Part shown: one piece after another, positions 4,857 through 47,943 of the stretch
Numbering within the stretch: position 1 is the first letter of the stretch
Layout: each line of letters starts with the position of its first letter
Assembly: GCA_963812135.1 (NCBI GenBank)
Contig: CAWETU010000001.1
Location: 832,001 to 896,000 of the forward strand
DNA: 64,000 nucleotides
Reading direction: 5' to 3'
Source of the DNA: Vulcanimicrobiota bacterium
Lineage (GTDB): Bacteria; Vulcanimicrobiota; Vulcanimicrobiia; Eremiobacterales; Eremiobacteraceae
Notes under the pieces: model-generated
The model's input: the letters and a program-made list of their open reading frames with translations, nothing else
Database searches by the model: none
Told to the model about the DNA's origin: nothing
Made by a program: the position numbers and the translations under genes

Positions 4857-6138
4857 ACGTCAGCGCGCGGATGTCGGGCCGGCGCGCTGTGATGGCGACC
4901 GCCACGATCAACGCCACGCCGCCAAGCGCGAATGCGACCGGCAGCGAGGTGACGCTGGCGATGGATCCCAGCAGCCATGAGCCGAGCGGCATGAAGCCCA
5001 AGAATATCATCGTGTAGATCGACATGACGCGCCCGCGCATCGCGATCGGCGTGTGGGTCTGCAAGATCGTATTGGCCGTGCCGAGATAGAGCATTGCTGC
5101 GACGCCCAACGCGAGCAACACCGTCGCGGCGGACCACAACGTGTGCATGGCGCCGAGCAGCGCCAGCAAAGCGCCGGAGGCCGCGGCGCTGGCGATGAGC
5201 AGCCTGCCGCGTGGGGCGCGGCCGCCGATGAATGCGGTGGCGATCGAGCCCACGAGCGCGCCCGCGCCTGAGACCGCCAACAAGATGCCGAGCTCGCGCG
5301 CCCCTGCGCCCAGCTGGGCCTTTGAGAACGCGGGCAAGAGCTGGATGTAGGGGCGGCCGATGAGCGCTTGCAGCGCCGAGAGCACCACGACTGCGAAGAT
5401 CAGCGCGTTGGCGCGGACGTAGCGGAAGCCTTCGATCACGTCGCTCCAGATGTCCGTCTCGGGCAACGCGTTGAACGGGGGTTTGGGCTTCATGAGAAGC
5501 ACGGCGGCGTAGACCGCCATGTACGACGCCGCATTTATATAGAAGCAATCCGCAACGCCATACGCGTTGACGATGAGACCGCCGAGCGCCGGACCGATGA
5601 TCGCCGGCCCGTTGAAAGCGGCAGAATTGAGACCGATCGCGTTCATGAGCTCGCGCTTGCCGACGAGCACCGAGACCAGCGATTGGCGGGTCGGCGCCTC
5701 GAACGCGCTCGCCGCAGCTGACAGCGCGGCGATGAGCAGCACCTGCCACACCCGCACGACGCCGGTCTGCGCCAGAATGCCCAGCAGCAGGGTCAGGAGG
5801 CCGAGCAGCAGCTCGCAGACGGCGAGGATGCGCCGGCGGTCTCGCCGGTCCGCGAGTGCGCCGGCGACGCCGGACAACGCGAAGACCGGGATCGCGCGGG
5901 CGAAGCCGACCAGCCCGAGATACAACGATGCCAATGATGCGTTGGGGGCGAGTTGGACCACGAGCCAGCCCTGGGCCAGGATGGCCATCCAGCCGCCCGT
6001 GTTGGAGACGAGCAGGCCGAACCACAGGAGCCGGAACTCGCGGTAAGCGAGGGCGCCAAAGCGCGTGCGCGCGTGGGGGCTGGGCTGATCGTCGAGCGCT
6101 TCTTGCGACGCGGAGGCTTCTTCGAATGAGGAGGGCAC
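4855..6138 (-). CDS. MFS transporter (H+ antiporter/EntS-like)
   Basis: About 12 hydrophobic segments; GALADRRDRRR motif A; RGRVMS. Confidence 0.9.
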   Translation of the reverse strand: MPSSFEEASASQEALDDQPSPHARTRFGALAYREFRLLWFGLLVSNTGGWMAILAQGWLVVQLAPNASLASLYLGLVGFARAIPVFALSGVAGALADRRDRRRILAVCELLLGLLTLLLGILAQTGVVRVWQVLLIAALSAAASAFEAPTRQSLVSVLVGKRELMNAIGLNSAAFNGPAIIGPALGGLIVNAYGVADCFYINAASYMAVYAAVLLMKPKPPFNALPETDIWSDVIEGFRYVRANALIFAVVVLSALQALIGRPYIQLLPAFSKAQLGAGARELGILLAVSGAGALVGSIATAFIGGRAPRGRLLIASAAASGALLALLGAMHTLWSAATVLLALGVAAMLYLGTANTILQTHTPIAMRGRVMSIYTMIFLGFMPLGSWLLGSIASVTSLPVAFALGGVALIVAVAITARRPDIRALT

Positions 6139-6188
6139 GTCATCGGCATTTCGCGCGACGGCACGTCAAGTCCGGTCAACAAATTCGA

Positions 6189-6212
6189 CGGTCGAGTAAA
6201 CTCGACCGCCAC
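6189..6212 (-). repeat. REP family 1 copy (GTGG variant)
   Basis: CGGTCGAGT-AA-ACTCGACCG plus CCAC; stem carries a compensatory change relative to other copies. Confidence 0.75.
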
Positions 6213-6467
6213 AAAACAGTAACGACCGGGCGTGAGCCCGGTCGTAACTGGTCTGGTCGATGGCGCTGAAGCCTCATTTTCGGACTGGTCAACGGCCGTT
6301 GCCGGTCCGCTTACTTTGGCTTTACTGGGACGCGATCCCCAGGTCCATCACTAGGCGTGAGCCTAGTCCCCAACGGCAGGGGTACCATTCCCGAGGAGCT
6401 CAGCTCTGTGCGATTGCACTCGCACCATCCGTTGTTGCTTCGCTTCCCCGGCACCGCGGTCGGTGTA
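6213..6467 (-). ncRNA. Candidate structured ncRNA or cis-regulatory leader of unknown family
   Basis: Upstream promoter, multiple hairpins, 5'/3' closing stem, terminal hairpin ACGACCGGGC-TCAC-GCCCGGTCGT followed by TACTGTTTT; no credible ORF. Confidence 0.65.
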
Positions 6468-6472
6468 GTGGC

Positions 6473-6501
6473 AGTATACAATCCAATGTTAATGGATACA
6501 A
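6473..6501 (-). promoter_or_regulatory. sigma70-type promoter
   Basis: Minus strand TTGTAT-17 nt-TATACT. Confidence 0.7.
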
Positions 6502-6531
6502 GCCGAACGACTGTTCCTTTTGCAATTAAAT

Positions 6532-6593
6532 TGTGGATAAGCGACCATTTGCGGAACTTTGTTGTGGACGAGTTGTGGATAAGCTGTTTGAAA
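6532..6593. promoter_or_regulatory. DnaA-box cluster
   Basis: Perfect TGTGGATAA at 6532-6540 and 6574-6582; degenerate TGTGGACGA at 6563, weaker matches at 6550 and 6585. Confidence 0.65.
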
Positions 6594-6620
6594 GAGCGCG
6601 CGCTGGGCTGAAGCGAATGA

Positions 6621-7976
6621 TTACGCGAGCGATTCGCCGATTTTTTCAACGCCAAACGCCAATTGTTCGGTCGCGATGACGAGCGGCGGCGACAGCGAGA
6701 GCACGTTGTTGCCGGGCCCGCCGGCGAGCACCACGACGCCGCGACGCAGCGCCTCAGTGACCGTCTTCGACGCTCGCGCCTGATCCGGCGCGCCGTCGTC
6801 TCCCACAAGCTCGATCCCCCACATGAGTCCACAGCCGCGAACGTCGCCGATACAAGGACCCACCTTCTCCGCCAGGGCCTTCAACATTTCTCCTAACGCC
6901 GCACCGGTGGTGGCCGAGCGCGCAACGAGGCCGAGCCGCTCGATCTCGCTGATCGAGGCGAGCGCCGCCGCGCACGCCGTCGGATGACCGAGGAACGTGC
7001 TCGTGTGCACCGACTCGCCTTGCGATACCGGCCATGCGTCCATGACTTCCGCGCGTCCGATGCACGCCGAAATGGGGAAGCCCGAGGCCATGCCTTTGCC
7101 GACGCACAGCAGATCGGGCACGACGCCGGCGTGCTCGCACGCGAACCAGCGACCGGTGCGGCCGAATCCGGTGTACACCTCGTCGACGATGAGCAGCAGC
7201 TTACGGCGATCGCACAGCTCGCGCAGCTCGAGCAGCCAATCGAAGGGCGCGTCGACGTCGCCGCCGCGGCCTTGGATCGCCTCGACGATGACGGCGCCGA
7301 TGGTATCAGCGTCTTCTGAGTCCATCGCCTCCTCGACGAAGCTCAGGCATGCGTTCTCGCACGCCGGATGCGTAAGACTTAAGGGGCAGCGATAGCAGTA
7401 TGCATACGGCACGCGCGTCGCGAAATGCCCGAGTTGCTTGTCGAACGGCGCGCGGAAGAAATCGCGATCGGTGACCTCGAGCGCTCCGTAGGTCAGCCCG
7501 TGGTAGGCGCCGGTAAAGCACAGCACGCCCGGCTTGCCCGACGCGACCGCCGCGGTCTTGAGCGCCGACTCCACCGCTTCGGCGCCGGTCGAAGAGAAGA
7601 TGACGCGCTTGGCGCCCTCTCCCGGGGCCAACGCGCACAGTTTTTCTGCGAGCGCGACTTTGACTTCATTCGGATGCACGTCGCCGATGCCGTGCAACAG
7701 CAGCTCGGCTTGCTCCGCGACGGCTTTGACGACCGCCGGATTGCTATGGCCGGTCGCGGCGACGCCGAACGCGGCGGTGAGATCGACGTAGACGTTGCCG
7801 TCGACGTCCACCAGATTCGCACCGCTGCCGCGCTCGAAGAAGACGGGAAAGCGATCGCTCGCAAAAGTGATGTTCGGGCTCTCGACGTCGCGCAGCCGGC
7901 GCATCAACTCGCGGCTGCGAGGTCCGGGCGGATCGACGACGATGCGGCCGAGCTCGTTGCCGAGCGATGTGCTCAT
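6621..7976 (-). CDS. Class III PLP aminotransferase (GabT-like)
   Basis: DVDGNVYVD, GAEAVE, YHG, DEVYTGFGRTG, PDLLCVGKG; ATG 7976 overlaps the upstream stop. Confidence 0.9.
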   Translation of the reverse strand: MSTSLGNELGRIVVDPPGPRSRELMRRLRDVESPNITFASDRFPVFFERGSGANLVDVDGNVYVDLTAAFGVAATGHSNPAVVKAVAEQAELLLHGIGDVHPNEVKVALAEKLCALAPGEGAKRVIFSSTGAEAVESALKTAAVASGKPGVLCFTGAYHGLTYGALEVTDRDFFRAPFDKQLGHFATRVPYAYCYRCPLSLTHPACENACLSFVEEAMDSEDADTIGAVIVEAIQGRGGDVDAPFDWLLELRELCDRRKLLLIVDEVYTGFGRTGRWFACEHAGVVPDLLCVGKGMASGFPISACIGRAEVMDAWPVSQGESVHTSTFLGHPTACAAALASISEIERLGLVARSATTGAALGEMLKALAEKVGPCIGDVRGCGLMWGIELVGDDGAPDQARASKTVTEALRRGVVVLAGGPGNNVLSLSPPLVIATEQLAFGVEKIGESLA

Positions 7977-9151
7977 GCGGCTTGGAAATCGCGCGGCGTG
8001 GGGCGATAGCCGAACGGCGGGCGCTGCATTTCGCCGAGCTCGCAGAGCCGGCGCGCGCCGGCCAGCGCGAACGCCGAGCGGTCGCGTTCGGGGGTGTTCA
8101 GCGCGAATCCGATCGTCTCGACCGGCCGCCCGAAATGCTTGAGCTGCGTCACGACATCCCGCGCGCTGGGCGCGTGCTTGACGATCACGATGCGCCCAAA
8201 GCCGGCACACGTCGGCTGCCCGAACGGCTCGAGCGCGACCACGAATTCGGGCACATTCTGGCGCAGCAGGCCCTTCACGAGCGTGTCGAGCCCATGCGGC
8301 AGCGGCGCTACAGCGGTCAGCCCCAAACGACGGACGAAATCGGCGACCTGCGCGCCCTCGTCTGGTGCGAAGGCGGCGCGTGGCAGCTGACCGGCTTTGG
8401 AGCGGATCTCGCCGGCCAGCGCGCGCGTGAACAGGAGCGCTTTTCCATTGTCGCCTGCCACGTAGATGGTCTGGGGCGACATGCAGCCACGCTGATCGAA
8501 CAAGCACACATCCGAGGCAGCTGCGGCGGCAGCCTTACCGACCTCCGCATCGGCGTGGAGGTAGCCGATGCTGTATGACTCGCCATACCCCGTCACGCGG
8601 ACGTGCGATGCGCGATCACGGACCTGCTCGATCGTCGCGTCCTCGCCGAAGACGATCAGATTGTCGATGCTTGAAAGCGCGGCCGACTCCGCGTCCAGAT
8701 CTCCGCCGCGCCAATAGCGCGCCTCGACCAGGCCGCGCAGCGGAGCGCCCGATTCGTCGAATTGGCGGCTGACGATCTGCGCGAGGTGCTGCTCCGCGCT
8801 CGCAGCTTTAAGAATGGTCGGGGTCTCGGCTATGGCCGCGCAAAACGCGGCGTGGATCGCCGGCCCGATTATATTGCCGGGGAGAATCACCACCGTCCGA
8901 GCACCCGCTCGGACGGGCACCCGAGCGTTCGCTCGGGTACTACATTCTTCTATGAGCGCCAGAGCGCGAGGCTCGTCCAGATCCCACAGCGCGTTGTCGA
9001 GCGCCGCTTCGACCACCTCGGCGGGCCAGATCCCGCCCGCGAGCGCTTCACGCGCCCGTGCGCGGACCGTCGACGCGCGATCGCGCCACTGCGCCGCTGC
9101 GCTCGCGATCGCATGCGCGCGGGTGACGCCGGCGGCGATCTCGGTTTTCAT
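7973..9151 (-). CDS. LuxC-like acyl-CoA/acyl-protein reductase
   Basis: LPGNI, FG-EDAT, FDQRGCMSPQ catalytic-Cys motif. Confidence 0.8.
   Translation of the reverse strand: MKTEIAAGVTRAHAIASAAAQWRDRASTVRARAREALAGGIWPAEVVEAALDNALWDLDEPRALALIEECSTRANARVPVRAGARTVVILPGNIIGPAIHAAFCAAIAETPTILKAASAEQHLAQIVSRQFDESGAPLRGLVEARYWRGGDLDAESAALSSIDNLIVFGEDATIEQVRDRASHVRVTGYGESYSIGYLHADAEVGKAAAAAASDVCLFDQRGCMSPQTIYVAGDNGKALLFTRALAGEIRSKAGQLPRAAFAPDEGAQVADFVRRLGLTAVAPLPHGLDTLVKGLLRQNVPEFVVALEPFGQPTCAGFGRIVIVKHAPSARDVVTQLKHFGRPVETIGFALNTPERDRSAFALAGARRLCELGEMQRPPFGYRPTPRDFQAA
8893..8949 (-). repeat. REP family 2 doublet inside the LuxC-like CDS
   Basis: Minus strand AAGAATGTAGTACCCGAGCGAACGCTCGGGT plus a second hairpin (plus strand CCGTCCGAGC-ACCC-GCTCGGACGG); near-identical to 35233-35262. 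Confidence 0.75.
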
Positions 9152-10257
9152 GACAGTGCCGCATCGATGGCGATGCTGCAGCCTCTCGGCGGCTCGCCTG
9201 GCGCGCGTCCGAACAGCTCGAAGCCGCCGTCGACGTGACGCGCAAGATCGCCGGTCAGCACGGACGCGACAGAGCCGCGGTTGCTCAGGTCGAAGATCTG
9301 CAAGAGCCCGATATCCCCGTCAGGCAAGGGCGCGGCGGTCACGCGATCGACGACAAGCGTCTTGGCCCAGTGCGGCCCGACTTTGAGATGCGTGCGCGGT
9401 GCGTGGCCGCTGGAAAAGTCGCCGAGGTTGGCATCGTACCACTGGCTGCCCAGCTCGCACATGCCGTATTCGGAGACGCAGAGCTCGCGCGGCACGCCGA
9501 GCAGCGCGGAAAACCAGCCATAAAGCTCGTCGCGGTCAACCTCGCGCGATTTGCCCTTGAAACCGCCTGTCTCGACCACTCGACTGCCCGGCGGCAGCGA
9601 GAAGCGCTCGCCTGTGTCGGAACAGCGATCGAAGAGATGGACGAACGCGAAGGCGGTGCCGATGACCAGCACCGGGCTCTCGGCCGTTCGCAGCGCGCGA
9701 GCAGCGCCGGCGAAATCGATCGACGCTCCGTCGTGGAAGAAGCCGTCGCGGGGCGTGCCGAAGACGTCGCTGATCTTTGAGATCATGTACGAGAGCGAAG
9801 AGTTCGGCGCGAGCGAAAACGGCGGCGCAAGCGCCACGACTTGCATCGGGGCGGCGTCGAGCAGCACGCGCTGGCGGAAATGGGTCAAGAGAGACGAGTC
9901 GTACAGTTTCGTGTTCTCGAGCTCGAGTCGCGAGCGGCTCGCATGGGTCGTGCCGCTCGACAAGAATGCGATGCGCGCACGCTCCGGAGGAAAGCACGCC
10001 AATCTGACCTGCGAGAACGCCGCGGTCGGCACGGCCGGCACGTCCTGCCAACGGTACACCGACAACGGAGTGCTGCCTACGCGATCGCAATAGCGCCGGT
10101 ATGGCTCGTTGGCGGCGTACTGATACGCGAACAAGTCGACCGCAAGCCGGCCGAATGCCGCCGCGTCACCGTCCTCGCGCGCGATGAAACGGCCGATGCG
10201 CTCGTCAAGCTCGCCGGCGGATGGCGCGGTGCTGCGAAGCGCCCCTGAAGGTTGCAC
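9148..10257 (-). CDS. LuxE-like acyl-protein synthetase
   Basis: FLSSGTT, ETGGFKG, SEYGMCELGSQ, TGDL, C-terminal GRA..RGCS; GTG start at 10257 inferred. Confidence 0.85.
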   Translation of the reverse strand: MQPSGALRSTAPSAGELDERIGRFIAREDGDAAAFGRLAVDLFAYQYAANEPYRRYCDRVGSTPLSVYRWQDVPAVPTAAFSQVRLACFPPERARIAFLSSGTTHASRSRLELENTKLYDSSLLTHFRQRVLLDAAPMQVVALAPPFSLAPNSSLSYMISKISDVFGTPRDGFFHDGASIDFAGAARALRTAESPVLVIGTAFAFVHLFDRCSDTGERFSLPPGSRVVETGGFKGKSREVDRDELYGWFSALLGVPRELCVSEYGMCELGSQWYDANLGDFSSGHAPRTHLKVGPHWAKTLVVDRVTAAPLPDGDIGLLQIFDLSNRGSVASVLTGDLARHVDGGFELFGRAPGEPPRGCSIAIDAALS

Positions 10258-10315
10258 GATGCATGCATTTTTTGACAGGACAACGCGCTTCTCATCCGAA
10301 GCCGGACGACCCACC

Positions 10316-10714
10316 ATGCGGCAGCTCGAGATCGGCTTGACGTCGAGCAATGATTACGTGGCAACCCCCGAGCGGCTTGCAGACCGCTACGGCAATCCGG
10401 GCGTGCCGGTGCTTGCGACGCCGCACCTCGTGCACCTCGCCGAAGCCGAATGCGTGCGCTGCGTCCAGCCGTATCTGCGCGAGGGCGAATCCACCGTCGG
10501 CGTACGCCTCGACGTCCGACACGTGGCGGCGACTCCGGCGGGCATGCGCTTCACGATGCACGCGAAGCTCGCCGAGATCGATCGGCGCCGGCTGGTCTTC
10601 GAGGTCGAGGCGCGCGATGAGCACGGCGTGTGTTTCGCGGGCAGTCACGAACGTTTCGTCATCGAAACGGCGCCGTTTCTCGCGAAGGCGTTGGAGCGGG
10701 GGAAACGGACGTGA
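10316..10714 (+). CDS. Fluoroacetyl-CoA thioesterase (FlK)-like hotdog thioesterase
   Basis: VLATP..E, STVG, HVAATP, GSHERF. Confidence 0.85.
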   Translation: MRQLEIGLTSSNDYVATPERLADRYGNPGVPVLATPHLVHLAEAECVRCVQPYLREGESTVGVRLDVRHVAATPAGMRFTMHAKLAEIDRRRLVFEVEARDEHGVCFAGSHERFVIETAPFLAKALERGKRT

Positions 10715-47907: not shown

Positions 47908-47943
47908 GAAAAGCAGCCTACTAGAACAAACGTTCGGTATTCG

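Follow-up and report, generated by a model that had tools for sequence, protein, structure and literature searches.

What occupies the G+C-rich segment of about 250 nucleotides (nt) that lies between an aminotransferase gene and a transporter gene of this Vulcanimicrobiota genome? The segment could be a gene for an RNA or the leader of the transporter gene behind it. It belongs to a stretch of 64,000 nt of contig CAWETU010000001.1, and we refer to that whole stretch as the window. A sequence-only reading of the window had proposed a structured RNA of about 250 nt with its own promoter and terminator, either a novel standalone non-coding RNA (ncRNA) or an attenuator for the transporter gene. 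Our analysis confirms the RNA and places it at window positions 6216-6466, where the minus strand encodes a structured RNA of 251 nt, in our best reading a standalone ncRNA gene. The proposal of a novel standalone ncRNA is supported by the lack of a matching Rfam family, by covariation within the fold, and by contigs from RNA libraries that match the predicted start and end. All coordinates below are window positions on the minus strand unless a contig is named, and promoter positions are numbered with 6466 as +1. The gene and the elements that delimit it are these:

6216..6466, minus strand: RNA gene of 251 nt, with its 5' end at A6466 (or U6467) and its 3' end at U6216 (or G6217).
6473..6478, minus strand: -10 hexamer TATACT, at -12 to -7, kept in 28/29 homologs (L007 reads TATGAT).
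6496..6501, minus strand: -35 hexamer TTGTAT, at -35 to -30, its TTG invariant and 17-18 nt from the -10 hexamer.
6216..6250, minus strand: terminator, with a core stem ACGACCGGGC/GCCCGGUCGU (6245-6222) that is extended by CAGU/ACUG and followed by UUUU.

The promoter is of the sigma-70 type, with a start 7 nt past the -10 hexamer. The pattern first noticed, TTGTAT-17-TATACT, is kept in all 29 homologs as TTG-N17/18-(G)TATACT, the sequence of the spacer being variable, and the G at -13 is kept in most of them. The first invariant column of the alignment is A6466 (29/29 homologs). A promoter consensus scanner made no call at the RNA promoter because the -35 hexamer matches TTGACA at only 3/6 positions. 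At the other end of the gene a terminator scanner calls a hairpin at 6245..6222 with the tail TACTGTTTTG, which is the 10-bp hairpin with a U-rich tail that had been described before, and the sequence past the hairpin reads UACUGUUUU. Double changes are found in 5/10 pairs of this stem and all of its cells are paired; in some genera its U run is short or broken. With a stem-loop, a U run and contigs that end there, it is an intrinsic (factor-independent) terminator.

The 281 nt from 6200 to 6480 are present in 20 runs listed, 16 of which are soil or rhizosphere metatranscriptomes from 13 studies, each with at least 68% of the sampled words. Logan contigs of four runs (X1-X4, from four studies) were compared with window positions 5700-7000, and those covering the RNA are as follows:

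6214-6581: X1 contig, which extends upstream past the start.
6216-6466 exactly: X2 contig of 281 letters, which closes on itself, with a mean word depth figure of 1056.
6241-6452: X3 contig, 0 differences.
6241-6454: X4 contig, 0 differences.

The junction of the X2 contig joins A6466, 7 nt after TATACT, to U6216, just past the extended terminator stem, with one letter ambiguous, and the contig ends at 6214 and at 6216 come from two separate studies. The RNA is expressed, with both ends as predicted. The length of the closed contig is 251 + 30 letters, as would be expected of a cycle in an assembly from 31-letter words. This junction, head to tail and exact at both ends, was seen in X2 alone among the four runs. 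Its source may be a circular form of the RNA, or rare head-to-tail library chimeras of a linear one, which are a library-preparation artefact of abundant linear RNA. The picture fits a mainly linear RNA, as the X3 and X4 contigs lack 12-25 nt at either end and that of X1 extends beyond the start. Positions 6052-6183 are uncovered by the four sets of contigs, such gaps in cover, like the depth figures, giving no basis for ranking genes. The transporter gene is met by one short contig piece with both ends loose, and the aminotransferase gene by pieces with many differences.

The fold provides the second line of evidence. The segment has a minimum free energy of -116.7 kcal/mol (z = -4.9 on the minus strand, 0/200 shuffles as good), and folding of the plus strand also beats its shuffles (z = -4.5). 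RNAalifold gave 63 pairs, 32 of them with compensatory changes, on an alignment of 29 sequences (A1). We refined this to a structure of 70 pairs by removing a 2-bp helix, extending helix P2, and adding a 2-bp helix and a possible pseudoknot. In the refined structure 96.8% of 2028 cells (29 sequences) are paired. Double changes are found in 34 of the 70 pairs, compared with 18.4 +/- 2.0 in column shuffles, and none of 500 shuffles reached 34. When the partners were slid by 1-3 columns as a control, 3-12 pairs had double changes; when L009, L024 and L027, from genomes flagged as unpublished, were dropped, 31/70 pairs kept theirs. The structure has the following parts upstream of the terminator:

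6452..6465, minus strand: P1, the 5'-terminal hairpin CACCG-ACCG-CGGUG, predicted by RNAalifold; it is invariant and hence without covariation support.
6391..6451, minus strand: domain 2, in which P2 (CCGGGGA/UCCUCGG) encloses the invariant GCAACAACGGAUG and the P3 hairpin (GUGCGA/UCGCAC).
6255..6386, minus strand: domain 3, closed by P4 (GGU/ACC) and P7 (GAUGG/CCAUC) and holding P5, P6, P8 and a variable arm, P9.
6372..6433, minus strand: possible pseudoknot of AACGG (6433-6429) with CCGUU (6376-6372, in the P5 loop), 100% paired, with 5/5 pairs invariant in 29 sequences.

Domain 2 has double changes in 5/7 pairs of P2 and 5/6 of P3. The corresponding counts in domain 3 are 1/3 pairs in P4, 1/4 in P5, 4/6 in P6, 2/5 in P7, 1/6 in P8 and 10/11 in P9. 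P5 is a CCCC/GGGG hairpin with the invariant loop UGCCGUU, P6 pairs CUAGGC with GCCUAG and P8 pairs CUGGGG with UCCCAG; the junction and loop nucleotides of the RNA are invariant. The stems GTGCGA/TCGCAC, (A)CTAGGC/GCCTAG(T) and CTGGG(G)/(T)CCCAG, which the sequence-only reading had picked out, exist and covary, and its CCG-GCAA-CGG is located in the variable distal hairpin. The pairing CAACGG/CCGTTG is also present and would be a pseudoknot, which may link the interior of P2 to the P5 loop, but it lies beyond the reach of covariation because no sequence varies at either side. A helix closing the 5' end on the 3' end, proposed in the same reading, did not survive the comparison. Its GAAGC/GCTTC part is paired in only 46% of cells, and its GGTGC/GCGCC part, 96% paired but with one-sided changes only, competes with better-supported helices.

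Which strand is folded had been left uncertain, and is settled by the pairing cells. G-U cells number 110 and A-C cells 20, which makes the minus strand the folded one; 96.8% of cells are paired when read on the minus strand and 92.4% when read on the plus strand. The pattern of variation also marks the RNA as non-coding. No conserved open reading frame (ORF) is common to all homologs, there is no 3-nt periodicity (variability 0.162, 0.185 and 0.189 in the three phases), and the lengths of the loop indels are not multiples of three.

The RNA belongs to no described family. Rfam 15 gave 0 matches at the gathering score in the whole window and 0 at E<=10 in positions 5900-6800. When 20 homolog loci were compared with Rfam, only three matches appeared, each of them on the terminator hairpin and below threshold (22-31 bits, where the gathering scores are 47-72). 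The genome encodes its 6S RNA, RNase P RNA, signal recognition particle (SRP) RNA and transfer-messenger RNA (tmRNA) elsewhere, each above cut-off, with 6S at C1:381233-381414 (84.6 bits). 6S RNA was ruled out on this ground and by the fold, which consists of multi-helix junctions and is not a rod with a central bubble. RNase P, SRP and tmRNA were ruled out since all three are encoded elsewhere, and a tRNA-like reading was rejected as ARAGORN found nothing in 5900-6800. We also rejected a bacterial Y RNA, PF05731 (TROVE/Ro) having no match in this 98.4%-complete genome with control genomes positive, and a CsrB/RsmZ-type sponge, CsrA (PF02599) having no match in the genome; 3-4 GGA motifs were counted by eye. 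Titles and opening lines of abstracts in the literature yielded no report on this RNA or on ncRNAs of Eremiobacterota.

To describe the distribution of the RNA we use own family for the family of the window genome, within the phylum Eremiobacterota. BLASTN of positions 6200-6520 against 61 genomes, the window genome included, matched 29/31 other own-family genomes, from 10 genera. The two own-family genomes without a match are 72% and 55% complete, and 0/29 genomes from two other families of the class matched. The gene is single-copy in the window genome. A covariance model (R1), built from 29 full-length homologs, scores the window RNA at 272 bits. Run with strict filters on 151 genomes of the phylum, the model recovered all 8 own-family members sampled, at 236-272 bits. 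Under the same filters the 142 genomes of other Eremiobacterota families gave no credible match; there were only two matches of about 90 nt, at 22 and 19 bits in a sister family, and these look like terminator hairpins. A search with laxer filters of five complete or near-complete sister-family genomes had a best E of 0.2.

A pattern scan of one genome per species (185,579 species) found 26 loci, 22 of which are the same own-family members. The other four (L047, L050, L053 and L056) were rejected as chance matches without similarity to the RNA. The same kind of scan gave 0 matches on viral contigs. On metagenome contigs a looser pattern gave 120 rows, mostly noise, and the model confirmed 7 of the 80 loci with DNA; these seven copies are 91-100% identical to known members and add neither diversity nor a test of the pseudoknot. 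Three genomes flagged as unpublished (G010, G013 and G016) are included in the 29/31, in alignment A1, and in the counts given below for lexA (30/30), for the aminotransferase loci and, with one match from G016, for paired boxes. No conclusion depends on these three alone, and sequences with the same match statistics as L009, L024 and L027 occur on the public contigs L058, L043 and L064.

The record titles of the 22 loci name metagenome-assembled genomes of Vulcanimicrobiota, Candidatus Eremiobacteraeota or Eremiobacteraceae in all except six cases. L042, L055, L057, L062, L065 and L066 are titled Binatus, Acidiferrales, Proteobacteria, 'uncultured proteobacterium' (twice) and 'unidentified bacterium'. 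These discordant titles are probably labelling differences, because the same contigs group within the own Eremiobacterota family.

What would set the transcription of such a gene? Upstream of the promoter lie conserved DnaA boxes and a LexA-like palindrome, neither of which the sequence-only reading had recorded:

6504..6517, minus strand: LexA-like (Cheo-type) palindrome GGAACAGTCGTTCG, of the form GAAC-N4-GTTC, at -51 to -38; it abuts the -35 hexamer and is kept in 29/29 homologs.
6518..6531, minus strand: A/T-rich stretch ATTTAATTGCAAAA, between DnaA box and palindrome, with ATTT(A/T) and an A-run in all genera.
6532..6540, minus strand: proximal DnaA box TTATCCACA, at -74 to -66.
6563..6571, minus strand: degenerate DnaA box TCGTCCACA, at -104 to -96, 2 bp after the distal box; (C/T)(G/T)TCCACA, in the own genus only.
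6574..6582, minus strand: distal DnaA box TTATCCACA, at -116 to -108, in 6/6 own-genus sequences.

The 9-mer TTATCCACA is an established DnaA box. At -74 to -66 a box of the form (T/C)TATCCACA is found with at most one mismatch in 27/29 homologs, and with two mismatches in the other two. A further upstream box is present in 19/29 homologs, at about -95 in 13 of them and at -116 in the own genus, and 10/29 have a single box only. All the boxes share the orientation of the RNA, and the sequence around them is unalignable between genera. The genome, of 2.79 Mb and 64% G+C, has 11 perfect DnaA boxes (6.2 expected), and two of them are here. Two boxes spaced 10-14 bp apart were matched ten times in 61 genomes of the class, each time at the RNA gene (10/10), and a reversed control pattern gave 0 matches. 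With consensus boxes conserved near its promoter, the gene is a candidate for membership of a DnaA regulon. The box centres, at about -70 and -91, would lie on one face of the helix and at the distances from which upstream activators typically act. The A/T-rich stretch may act as an UP-like element. Elsewhere in the genome a three-box cluster (GTATCCACA, TTATCCACA and ATATCCACA) stands just upstream of rpmH/rnpA (C1:307870-307960); these are the usual surroundings of an origin, and the cluster is the probable replication origin region.

The exact motif GAAC-N4-GTTC occurs 44 times in the window genome, compared with about 31 expected. The motif alone is therefore weak evidence, and we scored the palindrome with a position weight matrix of lexA operators, made from 14 distinct sites upstream of the lexA genes of 30 relatives. 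In each of the 30, one or two sites of the CGAAC-N4-GTTTG type precede lexA by no more than 260 nt. The window genome has CGAACATATGTTCT and CGAACAAACGTTTG at its lexA gene, and CGAACATATGTTCT lies 42 nt ahead of the first possible start codon in the frame. The palindrome keeps the half-sites CGAAC/GTTC and scores 9.7-13.6 bits in 29/29 homologs, which is in the top 0.1-0.6% of random 40-nt windows. The best sites genome-wide precede lexA, a gene for a RecA-fold protein of 259 amino acids (aa), which we take to be ImuA-like, and genes for a DnaE-type polymerase, Ku, a DinG-like helicase and ComEC. This set looks like an SOS regulon. The palindrome is best seen as a conserved operator-like element, with LexA the best candidate as its binder, though not a secure one. 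We found no description of position-locked DnaA boxes combined with a LexA-like operator for any ncRNA gene.

Some observations on the same matrix stand apart from the RNA gene. At the candidate SOS loci L141, L143, L078, L080 and L144 a high-scoring CGAAC-N4-GTT(C/T)G site lies just upstream of each gene. Within the window, AGAACAAACGTTCG at 47923-47936 scores 16.8 bits, 20 nt before a GH125 alpha-mannosidase ORF, and may be a chance match or an odd SOS target. The recA match of the window genome (L090/L092, C1:1828349-1829138) consists of two pieces that overlap (profile positions 1-46 and 43-262) and differ in open-frame length, which may be the result of a frameshift or an assembly error.

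The genes on either side of the RNA are co-oriented with it:

4858..6138, minus strand: MFS_3 transporter gene, downstream (Pfam PF05977, 218 bits).
6624..7949, minus strand: class-III aminotransferase gene, upstream (Pfam PF00202), the last in a LuxE-like/LuxC-like/aminotransferase row.

The aminotransferase gene is upstream of the RNA gene in 14/14 loci examined. The MFS_3 gene directly follows the RNA in 25/30 loci, and the other five (L010, L015, L016, L017 and L030) have a convergent gene, about 1.6 kb long, between the two. In L010 this intervening gene encodes a DUF4139 protein and in L015 it is without a Pfam match, and longer public copies show an MFS_3 gene beyond it in 4/5 of the interrupted loci. 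All five still carry the RNA, promoter, boxes and terminator. The distance from the end of the RNA to the start of the aligned MFS_3 protein is 28-292 nt in 16 loci inspected, over an unconserved spacer; in L012, L013, L024, L025 and L028 the aligned protein begins 28-50 nt past the terminator. We regard the MFS_3 gene as a neighbour that may be reached by read-through and not as part of the RNA.

The aminotransferase and the MFS_3 gene have orthologs in the sister family, and there the arrangement differs. The aminotransferase ortholog has a different ORF (about 310-350 aa) directly behind it in 11/11 loci, and the MFS_3 orthologs, at 39-44% identity, directly follow another gene in 5/5 genomes. 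Upstream of these five MFS_3 orthologs we found no leader and essentially no LexA-like site, and the R1 model with filters off found no credible match there (best 8.6 bits, E = 0.06). As the sister-family orthologs are without the RNA, its gene appears to be an innovation of one family.

The reading that we favour, with rather more confidence than doubt, is that of an independent gene whose transcription is set by DnaA, and perhaps by LexA, with a compact RNA that acts in trans and an MFS_3 gene served by occasional read-through. Transcription would begin at A6466 from the gene's own sigma-70-type promoter and end at the long hairpin of the intrinsic terminator. DnaA would act from one to three position-locked upstream boxes (-116 to -66) and a LexA-type repressor would sit at the -35 edge, so that synthesis of the RNA would be tied to replication and to DNA-damage status. 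The transcript would fold into a 5' hairpin and two multi-helix domains, probably linked by the pseudoknot, and would work in trans by binding a protein or a small ligand, not as a simple antisense RNA. The MFS_3 gene would probably be reached only by read-through of the terminator. In this scheme the gene with its fold and ends, its distribution and the conserved DNA sites are demonstrated, and we infer the binding proteins, the direction of regulation, the action in trans and the molecular function. A more far-reaching version, which we consider unlikely, is a replication-coupled riboregulator that DnaA switches on and a LexA-type repressor gates. Its RNA would feed back on initiation, the cell cycle or repair, for example by binding a replication or repair protein, and a fraction of it might be circular.

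When weighing this reading of an independent gene, it is important to set out what speaks against it. An MFS_3 gene 28-50 nt past the terminator leaves little room for a separate promoter and fits a cis-acting leader. The RNAs of L017, which has the inserted gene, and L019, which does not, are near-identical in the alignment, so the interrupted loci may be recent and do not prove selection on an orphan RNA. On the side of regulation, the palindrome scores 10-14 bits, compared with 19-24 bits for sites before repair genes (lexA's own score 21.9 and 23.3), and the recA promoter, taken as a control for SOS boxes, is without a LexA-type box. Another regulator or a promoter-proximal constraint could account for the palindrome. 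With a tight SOS operator, the presence of the RNA in many untreated soil libraries would be unexpected. The contigs reveal only presence, neither strand nor level, and DNA can be carried into RNA libraries; we therefore claim no fold-abundance over neighbouring genes. The confinement of the RNA to one family, in a phylum-wide model search that used strict filters, tells against a general role.

The chief rival is a cis-acting MFS_3 leader, either a riboswitch or a protein- or RNA-dependent attenuator, whose fold would sense a signal and of which the terminated 251-nt RNA would be the 'off' product. We hold this to be possible, if doubtful. A structured domain, an intrinsic terminator and a co-oriented transporter close behind in 25/30 loci are what terminator-type riboswitch leaders would offer, and several genera leave no room in the gap for an obvious promoter. 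The size of the RNA and its invariant junctions are within the range of large riboswitch aptamers, which are of comparable size and have invariant junctions as well. The locus also ends a conserved LuxE-like/LuxC-like/aminotransferase row, the product of which the exporter could handle. However, on inspecting alignment A1, in which no dedicated search for alternative structures was made, we recognised no conserved antiterminator pairing, and the terminator stem, of 10-15 bp, is conserved and in every case fully paired. Short CCGAG/CUCGG words are common to P2 and the terminator, without strict covariation. The sequence between terminator and MFS_3 is unconserved, the RNA with its promoter, boxes and terminator is kept in the 5/30 loci where a convergent gene intervenes, and the MFS_3 orthologs of the sister family are leaderless in 5/5 genomes. 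None of the X1-X4 contigs bridges the terminator, which is weak evidence as contigs show presence only.

Three further rivals all seem unlikely. E. coli datA/DARS and the DnaA-box clusters of Bacillus titrate or reactivate DnaA, and it could be that here too the DNA itself matters, with the RNA secondary. Two of the genome's 11 perfect boxes are at this locus, and the paired-box pattern is unique to it in 10 genomes. Yet a single box is all that 10/29 homologs have, the spacing between proximal box and promoter is fixed, as is typical of transcription control, and the transcribed part is far better conserved than the box region. This stronger conservation, with the 34 covarying pairs, means that selection acts on the RNA fold, and a locus that works as DNA seems improbable to us. 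Still less credit is due to a strongly diverged form of a known RNA, such as a 6S/Ms1-like RNA, a Y RNA, a CsrB-type sponge or a raiA-like RNA. An expressed, stable-looking RNA of about 250 nt with its own promoter and terminator and several GGA motifs would suit it, but Rfam gives no match at E<=10, a normal 6S RNA is encoded elsewhere, neither TROVE/Ro nor CsrA is found, and the fold is not a rod. Least credible of all is the mRNA of a small protein, for instance of a type I toxin that, like TisB or DinQ, is induced in the SOS response. It would account for a LexA-like box before a highly structured transcript of about 250 nt, and in many homologs a GTG at RNA position 13 opens ORFs of 30-51 codons. 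These ORFs vary in length and stop, however, and there is none in L008, L010, L011, L016 or L027; the lack of codon periodicity and the loop indels described above also count against it, and the substitutions in stems are compensatory.

The independent gene that we favour has counterparts among large structured bacterial RNAs. The raiA motif RNA and OLE are likewise about 200-250 nt or more in length and combine many helices with invariant junctions and probable pseudoknots. Each has a promoter and terminator of its own, a recurrent neighbour without clear regulation, and expression without a known mechanism. The RNA described here differs from both in having no similarity to any Rfam family, a distribution within one family, and a promoter with DnaA boxes and a LexA-like site. 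Terminator-type riboswitch leaders are set apart by the points given above: an antiterminator was not recognised on inspection of A1, without a dedicated search, the RNA is kept despite the convergent gene, and it is absent at the sister-family orthologs.

With regard to its predicted regulation, the promoter resembles the DnaA-regulated promoters of E. coli. Stringer, Fitzgerald and Wade (2024, PMC11317965) report that E. coli DnaA prefers paired boxes 2-3 bp apart and that its regulon includes genes of DNA repair and RNA metabolism. Here too consensus 9-mers lie upstream, and the own genus has a perfect and a degenerate box 2 bp apart, in keeping with that report. In contrast, the boxes of other genera are 12 bp apart (21 bp from start to start), 10/29 homologs have one box, the target is an ncRNA gene, and DnaA binding is a prediction. 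The palindrome shares its half-sites with the lexA genes of the own family and, at the -35 edge of the RNA gene, has the form GAAC-N4-GTTC of the Cheo-type LexA operators of Gram-positive-type SOS systems. Unlike those operators it is the weaker match given above, and its central four bases depart from the lexA-operator pattern.

Links between small RNAs and the SOS response are reported elsewhere. The 6C RNA of Actinobacteria is much shorter than the RNA described here and has two C-rich loops; our RNA belongs to another phylum and is without Rfam similarity. One report links 6C to the SOS response in Corynebacterium glutamicum (PMC5014011), and as a small RNA with strong transcription and a tie to DNA damage it would be a parallel to ours, for which the damage link is a proposal. 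LexA binding at small-RNA genes is reported for M. tuberculosis (PMC3381160).

Eremiobacterota (WPS-2) occur widely in soil, and hardly any experimental genetics exists for them. A whole family of them carries an RNA of complex fold and of no described family, present in soil RNA libraries of 13 studies, and its ends, fold and promoter are defined well enough for it to be synthesised and tested. It is a further candidate for the small group of large structured bacterial RNAs without known biochemistry. If the proposed wiring is true, it would also give a handle on how an RNA relays replication status and DNA damage in an uncultivated lineage.

A few minor features of the locus and genome deserve mention. 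The co-oriented row upstream (6624-10350) comprises a LuxE-like acyl-protein synthetase, a LuxC-like acyl-CoA reductase and the class-III aminotransferase, with the MFS_3 exporter beyond the RNA, and the three enzymes could together convert a fatty acid to an amine. Insertion of the convergent gene of about 1.6 kb is found in some genomes of two genera, and is seen in the public loci L045, L052, L062 and L066. Just past the RNA terminator, at 6186-6211, there is a second hairpin with a weak T tail, which in the alignment is shared by only some own-genus genomes (L001-L003). Elsewhere in the genome, L074 (C1:1419704-1424647) encodes a class II ribonucleotide reductase of 1648 aa that contains an intein with a LAGLIDADG domain.

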